A DNA stretch of 64,000 bases from a virus. Below the pieces are notes generated by a model. That model was not told where the DNA came from and made no database searches. It was given only the letters and a program-made list of their open reading frames with translations. Position numbers and translations under genes: made by a program. Positions 3,849 through 10,056 of this stretch are shown in pieces. The stretch lies in the IMG/VR virus record IMGVR_UViG_3300036892_000014, positions 19,882-83,881 of that record, one strand, 5' to 3'. How positions within the stretch are numbered: position 1 is the stretch's first letter; each line of letters begins with the position of its first letter.

Positions 3849-5963
3849 ATGTCGGAACCGCTAAATAATCAGGCAGCGTTGATACTTGGGAATCGCGAGG
3901 TTACCGCTGCGGATCAGATTACGTCAGAGAACATACACAAGGATAAGGATACTGGTACCTTCCTGTATGATGACCAAGCGGCTCTGAAGTTAGTTATTAA
4001 CGATGCGGCAATGGCGGACAACTACGCCAACGTCAATCAGTGGGCCAGCACTTGGACGCAGTCAGCGATTATTTTGCAGAGTCCAGCGAGCGCTTCGGCG
4101 TTCGACGGCGGCAACATAGCGCAGGCTAACGTTCCCAAGTTCACGTTATCGAACCACATAAGTGAGATAGTGCCGAAGATTATGGAAGGACTCTTTTATG
4201 AAGACCCTCCGTTTCTTCTTCGCCCGCGCCCGGGTACAAAACAGGAAATAGTCCGTTCAAAGACGGCACTGTTCTCTGCGCAATTGTGGGACATGCAGTT
4301 CAAGGTTGAGATGGAGCGTGGCCTTGAACAGATGGCGCTACTCGGCACCACAGTATTTAAGTGGGGCTACTTAGAGCGTCCCGTTAAATTGAAGCAGTTT
4401 CGCCGTAAGCAGGAACAGTTGCAACTTAATACATCTGTTCCAACTGACCCGATTAACACACCGGATTCTGACGCTTACGAAATGTTTATCCTCGACGAAG
4501 TGGAATCACGTCCGTGGATAAAGTACTGTGATATTCGTACTGTATTGGTTGAGCCAGGATGCCGTTACGGCGATATCCGTCGCGCAAAGTGGGTAGTATA
4601 TCGCGACTTTGCTACATATGATGATTTGAACACGCTGCGCAATGTTCCAGGCTACGATATCCCCGACGAGAAAACGTTGAGGGCGTTGTTCATGTCTGGT
4701 GCGACAACGGGTGCTGACAACATTACCATGACCATCCCAGAAGGGATGCGTGGTTATTTGCAGCAAGCGTTGCCACGTAGCTTCAGGAGTTCGACTGATG
4801 AGTTGCAGAACTCGTTGGAAATTCTTGAGCGCTGGGACAATGATAAGGTTATTGTCGCGCTTACCTTCAATGGTAAGCACATACTGATTCGTAACGAACT
4901 CAACCCGTACGGAAAGATTCCGTTCCTTTCGGCCAACTGGCGCAACCTGCCAGACAGTTTTTACGGACAAGGCCTAGGCCAGCTAATCGGAAGCGAGCAA
5001 ATCGTGGAGCAGGGAGTTACCAACCTTGCGCTCGATCTACTTGCTTATGGATTGCAGCCGACAGCCATTCGTAAGAAGGGCTTCAACGTTCCGACACAGA
5101 TGACCCGTTGGAAGCAAGGCGGAATCATCGACGTTGACGACGACGTTGACAAGGCTTTTAAGTTTATGACCATGCCTCCCGTACCGAGCGAGGCTTGGCA
5201 ATTCATTAACCAGGCAAAGCAGGATGCGGCTGGAACATCAGGTTCAAACGAAATCGTAGGCCAGGGCGGCACCGTCGGTGGTGGTCGCGGCACCGGAATG
5301 CGTTCGGGTACCGGAGCGGCAGCCGTTGTTCAGGCTAATGCTAGCCGACTTGACGGCCCGACCACACGCGTGATTGAGCAGGTTTTTGAACCGTGGCTTT
5401 ACCAGATGGATCAGTTGAATAATGAACTGCTTCCGACCAGTGTCCTCCGTCGTGTATTGGGCGAGGAAATGGGCAATGACTACTTGCAAGATCACATTGA
5501 ATTTCGCAATGCGAAGTTTCAGTATGAAGTTCTTGCAGGAGCGCATCTCGGGGCCAAGAAAGAAATGGCTCAGGCGTTGCCAGTCATCATTCAACTTTTG
5601 AATAACCCGACGTTCGTGAAGAACGTTAATGACGGGCACTATCAGTTCGACGCGGTTGCAATCTTCAAGGCGTTTACGGATGCGGCAGGTTGGAAGTTCT
5701 CTCAAGAATTCCTACGCCCGATGACACCAGAAGAAACACAACGCTATGAAGCGAATTCGCCAGCGGCACTTCAGCAGCAACAGTTGAAGGCGCAGCAGAA
5801 TCAGGCGCAGCAAAAGTTCCAACAGGAACAGCAATTAGAAGATCAAAAGCAACTCGGAAAGGCGGGAGCAGAAGTTCTTCGCGCAACAACTGAGCACAGC
5901 TTGTCTTCTGAAGATACGGGAGAACCGGGCAATCAAGGTTTCGGTTCGGAAGTTTCCGTTTAA
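3849..5963 (+). CDS. Portal protein
   Basis: 704 aa between terminase and scaffold; NPYGKIPF..SFYGQGLG motif; Gln-rich C-terminal coiled coil like the P22-type barrel. Confidence 0.85.
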   Translation: MSEPLNNQAALILGNREVTAADQITSENIHKDKDTGTFLYDDQAALKLVINDAAMADNYANVNQWASTWTQSAIILQSPASASAFDGGNIAQANVPKFTLSNHISEIVPKIMEGLFYEDPPFLLRPRPGTKQEIVRSKTALFSAQLWDMQFKVEMERGLEQMALLGTTVFKWGYLERPVKLKQFRRKQEQLQLNTSVPTDPINTPDSDAYEMFILDEVESRPWIKYCDIRTVLVEPGCRYGDIRRAKWVVYRDFATYDDLNTLRNVPGYDIPDEKTLRALFMSGATTGADNITMTIPEGMRGYLQQALPRSFRSSTDELQNSLEILERWDNDKVIVALTFNGKHILIRNELNPYGKIPFLSANWRNLPDSFYGQGLGQLIGSEQIVEQGVTNLALDLLAYGLQPTAIRKKGFNVPTQMTRWKQGGIIDVDDDVDKAFKFMTMPPVPSEAWQFINQAKQDAAGTSGSNEIVGQGGTVGGGRGTGMRSGTGAAAVVQANASRLDGPTTRVIEQVFEPWLYQMDQLNNELLPTSVLRRVLGEEMGNDYLQDHIEFRNAKFQYEVLAGAHLGAKKEMAQALPVIIQLLNNPTFVKNVNDGHYQFDAVAIFKAFTDAAGWKFSQEFLRPMTPEETQRYEANSPAALQQQQLKAQQNQAQQKFQQEQQLEDQKQLGKAGAEVLRATTEHSLSSEDTGEPGNQGFGSEVSV

Positions 5964-5978
5964 CCAATAAGGAATAGC

Positions 5979-6314
5979 ATGCCTACACCACTAATGTTTG
6001 ATGAACTAAATGCAACTGAGCGCGTTAATCTCGCGGGACTCCAACAGCATCCAGGATATGCAGTTCTGGAGAAGTTGATGATGTCCGCTTGCCGTCGCGC
6101 CACTGAATTAGTTATCGCATTGGACCCGACCGCGGAGGACTACGAGCGTAAGCTACGAGTCCTTCAAAGTCTTGCTCGCGAACGAAGTCAATTTTGTACG
6201 TTGGTCTTGAAGTCTGTAGCCTGGCAAGTTGATTATGAAGCCGAGTTACAGAAGAAAGAGAAGCCAACAGACAAGCCAGAACGTAATCCAATACTGAAGG
6301 GGATGCCACAATGA
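5979..6314 (+). CDS. Hypothetical protein in the head module after the portal
   Basis: Helical 111-aa ORF, HPGY motif, overlaps next gene (ATGA). Confidence 0.7.
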   Translation: MPTPLMFDELNATERVNLAGLQQHPGYAVLEKLMMSACRRATELVIALDPTAEDYERKLRVLQSLARERSQFCTLVLKSVAWQVDYEAELQKKEKPTDKPERNPILKGMPQ

Positions 6315-7531
6315 GTGATCTAGCACCTACGCCACAAAGCATTGATATGGCCATGATCCGCGGATGGGACGCGGCGACCATGAAGAGATATATGGCTGGC
6401 CCGTTACGTGCTACCATATTTGAAGTGATCTCGAACGCTGAGACTGCTAGGCAGGAACAAGCGGCTGCTGCACAGACGGAACTGGCGCAAGCCCCTCCTG
6501 TTGTCGGTGAGCCCGCAACTACGGATGTTGCCGAAGTAGAGCGTGTTCGCGCACAGCGTGTTGCCGAAGAAGCGCAGCGCGTTGAAGCACAGCGTCTCGA
6601 AGCAGAAGCTGTCGCTGCGCAAGTACCAAAAAAGATCGTTCTTGAATATCAAGTGACAGATGAGAGCGGGAACGCCATCGGGCGTCCGACTCATCTTGAA
6701 GCCACCAGCCATGAAGAAATGGTTGCGAAGGTTAAGGAAGCGCACATACAAGCAACGCGTGCGTTTAATCGCTTGAAGAGTCAGAAAGTACAATCCCTGA
6801 AAGAGGCAACCGCGTCAGGACAGATCGTGACGCCTCCCCAGGCTGCTCCGAGCATGTCCGATGAGGAAATGATCGCAGCCATTAAGGCACTAAAGTCAGA
6901 CGACCCGAAGGTCGCCTTGGAAGCTCACAGAAAGTTGCAAGCGGATGAACTAGCCAAGCAGAAGGCTGTATCCGATGCGGAACTCGCTAGAGTAAATGAA
7001 GATCGTCGCCAAGAAAAAGTCAGCCATGGTTTCTTGAACGATCACAAACACGATTTTAATCCGTGCGAAGCGAACATTAATCTGATTCGTGATTACTTCC
7101 AAGAAAATCAATTACCTTGGACACGCGATAATCTAGAAGTAGCTTTGCTCGCTAAGTCATCAGAGTTGGCTGGAGTTGTACAGCCAACAGCGCCTGTCGC
7201 CCCTAATCCGGTTCCGACAGCAACGCTACCCGCAGCAGCGGTAACAACTACAGTAGCGGTCCCGCCAGTGCAGGCGGCTCCGACTGCGACGGTCGCAGCA
7301 ATTCCTCCGGCAAATCCGGCAGTGATTGTTCCGAGACCGGGCGTTAACGCAGGAGTAGTTCCCGGTGAGACCTCAGGGTCGCGCCCGACAGGAACGACTT
7401 CGAGCGGCATAACGGTAGCAGAGATTACTTCATGGGATGCTAAGACGATGCGTGAGAAGATGCGTAATCCGCAGCTTCGAGCCCAAATACAGGCAGTCAT
7501 CGCAGCCAACCCCACGAATAAGTTTCGCTAA
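6311..7531 (+). CDS. Capsid scaffolding protein
   Basis: Ala/Glu/Gln-rich coiled coil, Pro/Ala/Thr linker and short C-terminal helical motif; immediately upstream of the capsid gene. Confidence 0.7.
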   Translation: MSDLAPTPQSIDMAMIRGWDAATMKRYMAGPLRATIFEVISNAETARQEQAAAAQTELAQAPPVVGEPATTDVAEVERVRAQRVAEEAQRVEAQRLEAEAVAAQVPKKIVLEYQVTDESGNAIGRPTHLEATSHEEMVAKVKEAHIQATRAFNRLKSQKVQSLKEATASGQIVTPPQAAPSMSDEEMIAAIKALKSDDPKVALEAHRKLQADELAKQKAVSDAELARVNEDRRQEKVSHGFLNDHKHDFNPCEANINLIRDYFQENQLPWTRDNLEVALLAKSSELAGVVQPTAPVAPNPVPTATLPAAAVTTTVAVPPVQAAPTATVAAIPPANPAVIVPRPGVNAGVVPGETSGSRPTGTTSSGITVAEITSWDAKTMREKMRNPQLRAQIQAVIAANPTNKFR

Positions 7532-7578: not shown

Positions 7579-8820
7579 ATGGCAGGCTCACCGAATCCGT
7601 CAGCAGCAAATGTAGGAAATATACTGACGGCGCAAAGCATTATGTTTGATAAGGAACTCATCCCGAACTTGAAGGGAGAAACGGATGCGTTCATCGTAGC
7701 AGCAGAAAAGCGTGTACAGCCGAACGGCGTTGGTATCAACCGCCAGTTCTTCCAGTACAACACTTTGACTGGTGATACGACACAGGTAGGAGACGGAGTT
7801 GTTGGCTCACCGGAATTCGTCGGTCAGATCAGCGCCCCGGCTCAGTTGGGCGAATGGAACAACTACACGAACTTCAGTTCGTTCGTAATTGCTTCAGCGC
7901 TTGACGACCTAGTGGGTAATTCCGCAGTCGAACTAGCCTACCAGGCTGGTCAGAGCATTTCCGAGTTGTACAGCGCCGTAGCAGACAGTGCTGGTCTAGC
8001 CTCAGTGGACACACAGGTTAACCAGAGCGCTTTGCTAGCATCGCCTTACACATTGGACTTGGCAACTGTACGTGAATTGAAGCAGCAGCTTGTTTCAAAG
8101 AACGTACTGCCGAACCGCAATGGTAAGTTCGCAGGCGTTGTATCTTCTAACGTGTTGGGCGACATCTTCAACGCAACGACAGTGAACAACTCAATCGTTG
8201 ACTTGTGGAAGTACGCAAACATCGAGAAGTTCGACAAGATCGCTGGTGCAGACCAGAAGATGGACATCGAACTCCCGGGAACGAACATCGTGCTTCGTCA
8301 GACGCCGTTCGTAACCACGACCGCTAACTACGCTGGCTCAGGTAAGATTTCTTACCGTACCTACGTAATGGGACAGTATGCCTTGATCGGCATCTGGCAG
8401 CAAGTTGGTGGAGACACCGACTTGGGTGACGGAGACTGGCGCACAATCGACTGCAAGGTCGTAGAGAGCGCACCGGCATCAGCATTTGATCCGACGGGAA
8501 CAATCGGTGGATAAAGAGTACTGTCCACTTTAAATTTTCTCTGATTGACTTGAACGCTGAAAAGCCAACAAGGGGCAAGCCGAAAGGCAGCCTGAACGAC
8601 TAAGTGAGAAAACACCCTCTGACAAAAGGGTGATGCGATAGTCTGACCATACGGGAATCAAAACCGTATGAACCGAACAGAAATGATTCGGTACACTCTG
8701 GTGAGTGTTAACAAGAGCGGGTGCTCATATAAATTTCACCAAACAGTTTCATTGCCGCCAGCACGTGGGGCTAACACCCAGCGTATGCGCTACATTGACT
8801 CTGTCCCAGCAATTCAGTAA
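7579..8820 (+). CDS. Major capsid protein, spliced: join(7579..8512,8720..8820), 344 aa
   Basis: HK97-fold-like capsid sequence after scaffold. The unspliced ORF ends abruptly at FDPTGTIGG. Removing 8513-8719 restores T|GG (Trp) and adds WCSYKFHQTVSLPPARGANTQRMRYIDSVPAIQ*, giving a DP.G..GW motif typical of capsid C-termini. Confidence 0.85.
8513..8719 (+). ncRNA. Group I self-splicing intron (207 nt, no internal ORF) in the major capsid gene
   Basis: P1 GGTGGAT(8506-12)/GTCCACT(8523-29) with U.G at the splice site; P10 GAGTACT(8516-22)/GGTGCTC(8720-26); P3 TTTTCTC(8535-41)/GAGAAAA(8606-12); P7 GACTA(8598-8602)/TAGTC(8639-43); P8 CACCCT/AGGGTG; three P9-region hairpins; terminal G8719. Confidence 0.92.
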
Positions 8821-8863
8821 TAAACCTCTTCCCACGGGCTTATAATCCGTGGTATACTAATCA

Positions 8864-8904
8864 GGGGCATGCCAGAAACATGCCCCAGATTCTCTTTTCT
8901 GGAG
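8864..8904 (+). promoter_or_regulatory. SD-sequestering hairpin/pseudoknot upstream of the endonuclease
   Basis: Stem GGGGCATG(8864-71)/CATGCCCC(8879-86); loop CCAGAAA is complementary to TTTCTGG(8896-8902), overlapping GGAG. A TGGTATACT extended -10-like box lies just upstream. Confidence 0.55.
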
Positions 8905-8911
8905 AGTACAC

Positions 8912-9403
8912 ATGTTCTATGGATTTAAGTCAAGAAGTGCTAGACAAAAGTATTATAAGAAGTGGAATAAAAGAAACAAACATCGCACTAAGAAATATGC
9001 CAAGAAGTGGTATTTAAACAATCGGGATAGGATTCTCAAGAGAGAAAAATCAAGGAAAGTCCGAACCCGAAAGTACAAGACTCGAAGACTGTGGAGAAGC
9101 CGTAATCGACTTCGAGAACTATCATATGGTTTGAAAGCCAAGTACGACATGAGTCTTTCTGGGTATAGAAAGATGTTCAAACATCAGAAAGGAAGATGTG
9201 CGATTTGCGGGAAGAAAGAGTCTATGCGGGATTCAAACACCGGAAAGATTCGTCTTCTCTGTGTAGACCACAATCATAAAACTAAAAAGATTCGTAAACT
9301 CCTATGTTGGCACTGTAACCTTGGCATAGGTATTTTCAAGGACGACTGGAGGCTATTGCAAATAGCATCTAGATATTTGAAAACGAATAAAGGAACTCGG
9401 TAA
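8912..9403 (+). CDS. Free-standing endonuclease VII-family (His-Me) homing endonuclease
   Basis: KY..S..Y..M..QKGRCAICG...LCVDHNH....IRKLLC..CN.GIG.FKDD...L..A..YL; very basic N-terminus; AT-richer than flanks. Confidence 0.9.
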   Translation: MFYGFKSRSARQKYYKKWNKRNKHRTKKYAKKWYLNNRDRILKREKSRKVRTRKYKTRRLWRSRNRLRELSYGLKAKYDMSLSGYRKMFKHQKGRCAICGKKESMRDSNTGKIRLLCVDHNHKTKKIRKLLCWHCNLGIGIFKDDWRLLQIASRYLKTNKGTR

Positions 9404-10056
9404 TGGCACAATCTCAAACGCCGCCGCTTCAGACGCTGACGAATCCCTGGGAAGGACGCAGTGACCTGAAAACCACAAGAGCCACAATAAAACAACTCTT
9501 AGCTGGTGGGACACCCTCGTGGGTCCGTTGGCCGAAGGACTATCGTAGCTTCGCCCAGGAATCGATTCTCGCCGACAAAGAAGTTAGTGATCGGATGACG
9601 TTGCGTTACAAAATGGAAGACCAGGAACTGCTTCTAAATGAAGAGGCACGGAAGGTTAATCCATGGCGTACTCGGAACTTCGTAGAGAAGATGAGGAACT
9701 CGGGCATCAGATGCTATACGATCTTCAATGGATTCCCTCCATCGACGGTCGCACTTTGGGCCTTCAGACCGGGAACAGACCATGTCGTACCCGTGTGTTA
9801 TTTGCAGACCCCGGCGATGTACGAATGGAGCGTGTTAAGGCTCGATAAACGTGGTCTACCAGCGGGAGAATCCTTTCGCGGATGGCGAACCGTTGTCGGG
9901 CAATTGATTGAGAAAGGGATTATTTCAGAGGCGCGAGCCAATGAAATTTTCGGACGACCGTGCGATGGCCCCGTTAGTCGCAGGTACAGAAGAAATATGT
10001 ACTGGCTCCGCAATCGGCGTGAACTAGTGGCAACTCCCGAAGAGATAGAACTGTAA
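9403..10056 (+). CDS. Hypothetical protein
   Basis: 217-aa ORF coupled to upstream stop; RGWRTV motif. Confidence 0.75.
   Translation: MAQSQTPPLQTLTNPWEGRSDLKTTRATIKQLLAGGTPSWVRWPKDYRSFAQESILADKEVSDRMTLRYKMEDQELLLNEEARKVNPWRTRNFVEKMRNSGIRCYTIFNGFPPSTVALWAFRPGTDHVVPVCYLQTPAMYEWSVLRLDKRGLPAGESFRGWRTVVGQLIEKGIISEARANEIFGRPCDGPVSRRYRRNMYWLRNRRELVATPEEIEL

Follow-up and report, generated by a model that had tools for sequence, protein, structure and literature searches.

The 64,000-nucleotide (nt) stretch analysed here, hereafter the window, belongs to the IMG/VR virus record IMGVR_UViG_3300036892_000014, the whole of which measures 83.9 kb and is estimated to be 79% complete. Within its probable major capsid gene lies a group I intron devoid of an open reading frame (ORF), closely followed by a free-standing gene for a nuclease with an endonuclease VII (EndoVII) motif. 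The intron is spliced in nature, exactly at 8512|8720. Across related phage loci, the nucleases located next to the capsid gene and the introns located inside it are coupled; this coupling is supported at the family level, is lineage-specific, and matches the prediction of collaborative homing, with the intron as a shield. With regard to the window's own pair, we lean, by a modest measure, towards a linked free-standing homing nuclease and intron that would have been combined by nuclease turnover. The elements concerned are the following, with positions given in the window.

7579..8512, plus strand: exon 1 of the probable major capsid gene, 311 codons and the first base of a Trp codon (ORF, homologues, phrog_1357, RNA joint at 8512)
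8513..8719, plus strand: ORF-less group I intron, 207 nt (helices found by eye and by script, covariation in 73 members, exact excision in RNA contigs)
8720..8820, plus strand: capsid exon 2, the last 33 codons and the stop (fits the C-terminus of uninterrupted homologues, RNA joint)
8821..8911, plus strand: nuclease leader, with two hairpins between the capsid stop and the nuclease ATG
8912..9403, plus strand: free-standing EndoVII-motif (DHHRN) nuclease, 163 amino acids (aa) (Pfam PF02945, 6e-17; PHROG endonuclease VII families; alignment with Hpy99I, 3fc3; optional in relatives)
9403..10056, plus strand: 217-aa conserved gene without a family match, which bounds the nuclease slot on the right (directly after the slot in nearly all related loci)

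The excision of the intron is observed in environmental RNA. Two metatranscriptomes of different studies (X4 and X5) each contain one contig that joins 8512 directly to 8720, with 70 and 89 nt on the shorter side of the joint, and the skipped segment of 207 nt ends AA..CG; the spliced contig of X4, which is 528 nt long, shows zero mismatches to the window. The joint was not found in two DNA runs, and a DNA contig covering 8379-8802 retains the intron in place with zero mismatches. RNA libraries may include DNA; however, a DNA allele that lacks the intron and is a perfect match over 507 nt is improbable, as the nearest intron-less relative is only 83-93% identical. The reading frame supports the same joint. 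Exon 1 ends in ...GGTGGAT and an in-frame TAA at 8512-8514 stops its ORF; most of the approximately 300 homologues are 340-345 aa long and continue as ...TIGG-WCSYKFHQTV...IDSVPAIQ. Joining 8512 to 8720 yields ...TGTIGG-W-CSYKFHQTVSLPPARGANTQRMRYIDSVPAIQ followed by a stop, which is the C-terminus of uninterrupted 344-aa homologues (P0001 and P0002), and P0001, which is 97% identical, matches the spliced product through to its end. The intron borders at 8513-8719, first proposed in a reading made from the sequence without database searches (the sequence-only reading), are thus confirmed by the restored C-terminus and by the RNA joints.

The public runs that contain this stretch originate from peat and permafrost. 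In a permafrost DNA run of another study, exon 2, the nuclease gene and the beginning of the gene after it are present, with a single difference from the window, which indicates that the arrangement recurs elsewhere. RNA contig depth is low across both the intron and the nuclease gene, and 8808-8850 is spanned by none of the RNA contigs; these depths and gaps cannot rank expression and were not used as evidence.

The excised segment is a group I intron with a P3-P9 core and a P3/P7 pseudoknot, composed of the following elements.

8507-8512/8523-8528: P1, GUGGAU/GUCCAC, with U8512.G8523 at the splice site
8516-8522: P10 guide (GAGUACU), pairing with 8720-8726 (GGUGCUC), the first seven bases of exon 2
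8535-8541/8606-8612: P3
8549-8552/8569-8572: P4
8556-57/8564-65: P5
8574-8592: P6
8598-8602/8639-8643: P7, GACUA/UAGUC
8613-8632: P8
8648-8670: P9
8672-8692: P9.1
8693-8708: P9.2
8719: omega-G, the last intron base

Intron sites are numbered here on the spliced DNA alignment of the capsid coding sequence (1035 nt), in which the window's intron occupies site 934. A covariance model was built from four members at this site, namely those of the window, L041, L047 and L039. The three homologous introns exhibit compensatory changes in P3, P4, P5, P6, P8, P9 and P9.1, and the P10 guides of L047 and L039 vary together with their 3' exons. The model finds 73 family members, all on the coding strand and inside the capsid genes of 79 related loci, the window having just one. 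In the alignment of these 73 members, which was fitted to the covariance model and so favours the structure, pairing is observed in 97.7% of cells, as opposed to 38-44% for slid controls, and both-sided changes in 46/48 nested pairs; a four-sequence MAFFT alignment independently gives the same changes. Over introns from different sites, 95.6% of the P1 cells are paired, and P7 pairs in 60/60 distinct rows, with compensatory changes at three positions.

Rfam gave no match to the intron, either at gathering score or at an E value of up to 10, and RF00028 matches nothing in the whole record. As the other 72 covarying family members are missed too, this reflects the coverage of the Rfam model and is not evidence against the intron. 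The intron core pattern TGAACGACTAAGNGAGA...GATGCNATAGTCTG is present in more than 119 viral contigs (L083-L162 among them), and its carriers constitute a large phage intron family undetected by RF00028. Introns with the same GGTGGAT/GTCCAC guide pairing also occur in non-capsid genes (L214, L217-L220 and most of L221-L262). These introns are overlooked by standard gene callers and by Rfam, with the result that such phages have capsid genes annotated in truncated form (311 versus 344 aa). Many truncated capsid calls end in LAA before the stop, for which a tag resembling that of transfer-messenger RNA was suspected; these tails are instead read-through into a conserved intron hairpin, CTAGCAGCGTAATCTGCTAG (GCA GCG TAA). 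Database capsid proteins with this ending include P0028, P0044, P0047, P0054, P0074, P0087, P0104 and others.

The adjacent gene at 8912-9403 codes for an intact nuclease of the EndoVII-motif type, a sequence-specific one. The DHHRN family is defined by CX2-4C...DH(D)H...R...CX2C-N (PMC6083498), and all the defining residues are present, as C96-x2-C99, D119-H120-N121-H122, R128, C132-x2-C135 and N136. The motif spans residues 96-136 of 163, in the C-terminal half, and the N-terminal 75 residues are basic. The deposited gene call begins at Met74 (P0121, 90 aa); we favour the 163-aa form, since the alignment with homologues begins in the N-terminal basic region and a conserved leader puts the Shine-Dalgarno sequence GGAGAG 5 nt before the ATG at 8912. 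The PHROG endonuclease VII families match from residue 12 onward. A search in viral contigs found no close relative of the nuclease, with at most 54% identity over a part. The gene starts 91 nt past the capsid stop (8820) and 399 nt past the 5' splice site, and its stop codon overlaps with the ATG of the following gene (9403). The sequence-only reading had given these distances correctly and had called this gene the sole intact homing-type nuclease of the window, which holds for the whole record: 8912-9403 is the only PF02945 match in the 83.9 kb, no GIY-YIG match is found there, and the single HNH match lies outside the window.

Since the catalytic motif of Endo VII is shared, the protein could be a phage Holliday-junction resolvase, analogous to T4 gp49. 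We consider this very improbable. A motif in the C-terminal half is characteristic of the endonuclease clade and not of the resolvase clade (PMC6083498), and the nearest solved relative, the restriction enzyme Hpy99I (E 2e-5), is a far better match than T4 Endo VII (E 0.6). Moreover, many relatives lack the gene or have a GIY-YIG or HNH gene in its place, so its function is not a core one. We infer that the product is a free-standing homing endonuclease.

The comparison with relatives was based on 61 related loci in which both borders of the slot are readable, representing 51 distinct configurations. The slot lies between the capsid stop and the conserved gene that follows, and it can be empty or occupied. 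Empty slots measure 20-130 nt and are found in 11 loci (7 configurations), L002, L004 and L010 being of this type. Filled slots measure 455-1003 nt and contain an EndoVII-motif nuclease, a GIY-YIG+NUMOD3 nuclease, an HNH-like nuclease (phrog_3322/374), an unknown ORF, or remnants, with nucleases of non-EndoVII families in more than 25 loci. The window's nuclease gene is an optional cassette in this hypervariable slot.

The filling of the slot is coupled with the presence of introns. A capsid intron at any site is present in 33/44 filled-slot configurations and in 0/7 empty-slot configurations (Fisher p=2.7e-4); with only 3' introns considered, these become 26/44 and 0/7 (p=0.004). The type of nuclease matters as well, as EndoVII enzymes go with sites 934/943 and GIY-YIG enzymes with sites 950/954 (6:2 versus 0:9, p=0.002). 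Within the EndoVII enzymes, one clade, termed clade A (support 99/97), goes with these two sites: 8/10 of its members accompany an intron at site 934 (L041, L115, L239 and L261) or at site 943 (L009, L018, L048 and L076), the remaining two (L001 and L055) having neither. Conversely, clade A is present in 8/12 loci with a 934 or 943 intron and in 3/36 other filled loci (p=1.6e-4). Sites 934 and 943 interleave in the tree of clade A, which points to repeated switches of intron site. All seven site-934 introns with a readable slot have a nuclease beside them, of EndoVII type in 5/7; the site is also found alongside a GIY-YIG enzyme (L228) and an HNH-like enzyme (L070).

Several observations weigh against linked homing. 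The tests of the intron-nuclease association ignore shared ancestry and are indicative only. Six EndoVII-carrying configurations, including that of L001, are without a 3' intron, which indicates that an intron is not required for coexistence with an EndoVII enzyme. In addition, in no pair of loci does the nuclease-plus-intron block show greater similarity than the backbones, and hence there is no sign of a recent joint transfer.

The position of the introns also bears on how nuclease and intron are related. At the 3' end of the capsid gene, introns are found at nt 821/828, 869, 926, 934, 943, 950, 954, 963, 987, 1001, 1010 and 1019, that is, 12 sites or more within the final 215 nt, and further sites lie near nt 65, 87, 92, ~280, ~360 and 617, bringing this one intron family to approximately 18 sites across the gene. 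Up to three introns stand in tandem at the 3' end of a single capsid gene, separated by micro-exons of ~25-150 nt, and some single genes have at least four introns; multi-intron examples are L061 4823-5663, L070 2979-5105 and L072 1858-4983. The large upstream introns (near nt 65, 92, ~280, ~360 and 617) carry LAGLIDADG or HNH-like ORFs, the LAGLIDADG ones near nt 280-360. One HNH-like family is both intronic (L038 3268-3885, L046 3235-3807 and L072 2069-2671) and resident in the slot as free-standing genes (L013 5251-5835, L043 5305-5880 and L056 5340-5921).

It is conceivable that nuclease and intron are independent neighbours, the nuclease homing into the slot by cutting elsewhere, for example at the empty-slot junction or at the 5' end of the next gene, and the intron being an old immobile passenger. 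Free-standing phage nucleases often cut hundreds of base pairs from their own gene (PMC2988022), nucleases have been swapped while introns stayed (L030 compared with L028, L029 and L031), and the lack of jointly transferred blocks among the loci is in line with such independence. Nevertheless, the absence of introns from all seven empty-slot configurations, the correlation of nuclease family with intron site, and the crowding of 12 intron sites into the 215 nt next to the slot make this explanation decidedly unlikely.

Linked homing would account for these features as follows. During mixed infection, the nuclease would cut relatives that lack it somewhere in the neighbourhood of the capsid 3' end and the slot, and repair from this genome would copy the nuclease gene and, by linkage over 400 nt, the intron. 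At the family level, introns may cluster in the final 215 nt of the capsid gene because they break nuclease target sites there, a role suggested by the fact that particular nuclease lineages accompany particular intron sites. A broader proposal, which we put forward tentatively, is that the end of the capsid gene and the slot form a many-sided arms-race locus, in which each nuclease lineage would have a cognate intron site, nt 934/943 for EndoVII clade A and nt 950/954 for GIY-YIG, nucleases would shift between intronic and free-standing forms, and one portable leader would serve them. If this is true, the approximately 12 close intron sites would represent a natural map of nuclease target sites.

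For the window itself, the sequence-only reading had proposed strict collaborative homing: the enzyme would recognise the uninterrupted sequence GGTGGAT|GGTGC, which the intron splits, and intron and nuclease would be copied together. The precedent it cited is as described in PMC6083498: in cyanophage S-PM2, the free-standing EndoVII-motif enzyme F-CphI cuts intron-less psbA, and the intron protects its own allele. The window has the same layout. The presence of a nuclease beside each of the seven site-934 introns and the preference of the EndoVII class for sites 934/943 also fit, and an incoming nuclease whose site is already split would cost its carrier nothing, which would favour such pairings. 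However, the window's enzyme does not belong to the 934/943 clade. P0122 and P0123 are the enzymes with which it groups (59-64% identity, support 98/97), and in the clade that contains all three only L032 has a readable capsid slot, where the capsid 3' end is free of introns. In the fetched loci, the enzyme's next relatives occupy another slot, upstream of the scaffold gene, in L048, L061, L064, L068 and L069. For P0123 and the uninterrupted capsid P0003, the longest contigs both measure 12,011 nt, by which adjacency is hinted only.

Comparison with individual loci separates the history of the intron from that of the nuclease. The intron of L041 is 86% identical to that of the window, with flanking exons at ~70-74%, whereas the two EndoVII enzymes are only ~32% identical and not alignable. 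The closest backbone relative is L001, whose capsid is 96% identical (83-93% at the nt level) and whose leader is 87% identical; it has an EndoVII gene and no intron, and its nuclease ORF and that of the window diverge exactly from the start codon. No donor lineage was identified for the exon flanks, L001 being nearest throughout. When intron-less alleles that have a nuclease were compared with those that have none, the exon sequence around nt 934 revealed no target-site pattern.

These results leave strict collaborative homing unlikely for this pair. That this very enzyme cuts GGTGGAT/GGTGC and spreads with this intron is not supported as originally worded, given the difference in clade and the association of the intron lineage with three nuclease families. 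The co-occurrence of intron and nuclease in relatives, which had been suggested as a check, points both ways: every site-934 intron with a readable slot has that slot filled, and the window's own nuclease clade is otherwise found beside the intron-less 3' end of L032 or in the other slot. A nuclease beside an intron-less site, which the sequence-only reading had counted against itself, occurs in L001 and in five other EndoVII configurations, with the proviso that those enzymes are not orthologues of the window's. The site-934 intron lineage would normally travel with the other EndoVII clade, and the slot would later have been taken by a nuclease of a different clade. As judged from these comparisons, the window's intron-nuclease pair is most likely a secondary combination, and linked homing with nuclease turnover is the reading that we prefer.

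The region between the capsid stop and the nuclease gene contains two hairpins.

8864-8886, plus strand: leader hairpin 1, terminator-like, with the loop CCAGAAA
8889-8907, plus strand: leader hairpin 2, which pairs the Shine-Dalgarno sequence GGAGAG (8901-8906)

The 7-nt loop of hairpin 1, CCAGAAA, is exactly complementary to TTTCTGG (8896-8902), which covers the loop of hairpin 2 and the first GG of the Shine-Dalgarno sequence. The same architecture precedes slot nucleases of every family in ~36/44 related loci, with 15 covarying loop variants of the general form CCNNNAA complementary to TTNNNGG; it lies within 62 nt before the nuclease start in L007, L009, L011, L012, L013, L018, L022, L026, L028, L035, L041, L048, L054, L076 and others. 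The contact between the loop and the Shine-Dalgarno sequence looks like a pseudoknot or a kissing contact masking the ribosome-binding site, and the leader probably holds nuclease expression low. Hairpins masking the ribosome-binding site are known for T4 homing nucleases (PMC2988022).

Based on its match to phrog_1357, on the gene order and on look-alikes in the ESM-Atlas, the gene at 7579-8820 is assigned as the probable major capsid gene. Two upstream genes are relevant.

3849-5963: portal (Pfam SU10_portal)
6311-7531: scaffold-like gene, Ala/Pro/Glu-rich

The order is portal, small ORF, scaffold-like gene and then ORF 7579-8514, which matches phrog_1357 'major head protein' (E ~1e-6), and the ESM-Atlas look-alikes of a full-length capsid homologue are named phage capsid proteins. 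None of the solved capsids matched the gene by sequence, a profile search of PDB sequences returning only chance kinesin matches, and an AlphaFold model from 39 homologues was unusable, with a mean pLDDT (predicted local distance difference test) of 39, and so gave no fold-based confirmation. In the window, the interval before the scaffold-like gene comprises only a 111-aa ORF (5979-6314). In relatives, this interval exhibits a second nuclease slot (L048 569-1018, L061/L064 1703-2137, L068/L069 1842-2117, L038 1091-1492 and L021 1859-2320), occupied by EndoVII-motif genes, the next relatives of the window's nuclease. A DNA-level search of a phage collection gave a single weak match of 119 nt. 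In the P0003 cluster, public records file capsid proteins of this phage group under 'Candidatus Paceibacterota bacterium' (a metagenome-assembled genome) and 'uncultured archaeon', the contigs measuring 95-100 kb. Phage contigs have probably been binned into cellular genomes here, and the labels are not evidence for the host.

Collaborative homing, the adoption by a free-standing nuclease of an intron splitting its target, has been proposed as one route to mobile introns, and very few cases have been tested. The phage group described here supplies dozens of natural variants of one locus, namely empty slots, slots with a nuclease and no intron, introns accompanied only by a nuclease remnant, and differing pairs of nuclease family and intron site. 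This locus family is a good natural test bed for collaborative homing, and the confirmed splicing of the window's intron in nature makes the model testable.

The layout itself is already known from several systems. In S-PM2, as in the window, an ORF-less group I intron in a conserved gene adjoins a free-standing DHHRN nuclease with its motif in the C-terminal half (PMC6083498). In contrast to psbA, the host gene is a capsid gene here, the likeness to the F-CphI family, known here from sequence comparison, is limited to the catalytic motif, the slot is used by at least three nuclease families, and the usual EndoVII partner of the intron belongs to another clade. In T4, the trans homing of mobE/nrdB and the intronless homing of the seg and mob genes (PMC2790892, PMC2988022) likewise involve an optional free-standing nuclease between conserved genes, a neighbouring nuclease-deficient intron that can be mobilised by linkage, and hairpins that sequester the ribosome-binding site of the nuclease. 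The nuclease family and the host gene differ here, and the leader adds a covarying loop-Shine-Dalgarno pairing common to unrelated nuclease families. In vibriophage ICP1, a T5orf172 nuclease lies beside, and not inside, the intron of an essential late gene, that of the terminase (PMC10448857). The 'HEG turnover' hypothesis, HEG standing for homing endonuclease gene, states that free-standing nucleases replace one another while splice junctions persist (PMC10448857). The families differ from those found here, where turnover is directly visible as differing families and clades in one slot across ~60 loci. Finally, mycobacteriophage LittleE and lactococcal phage Tuc2009 have a group I intron in the major capsid gene that is spliced in vivo (PMC3706429). 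The LittleE intron has its own HNH gene, whereas the intron described here is a minimal, ORF-less member of a family with approximately 18 sites in one gene.

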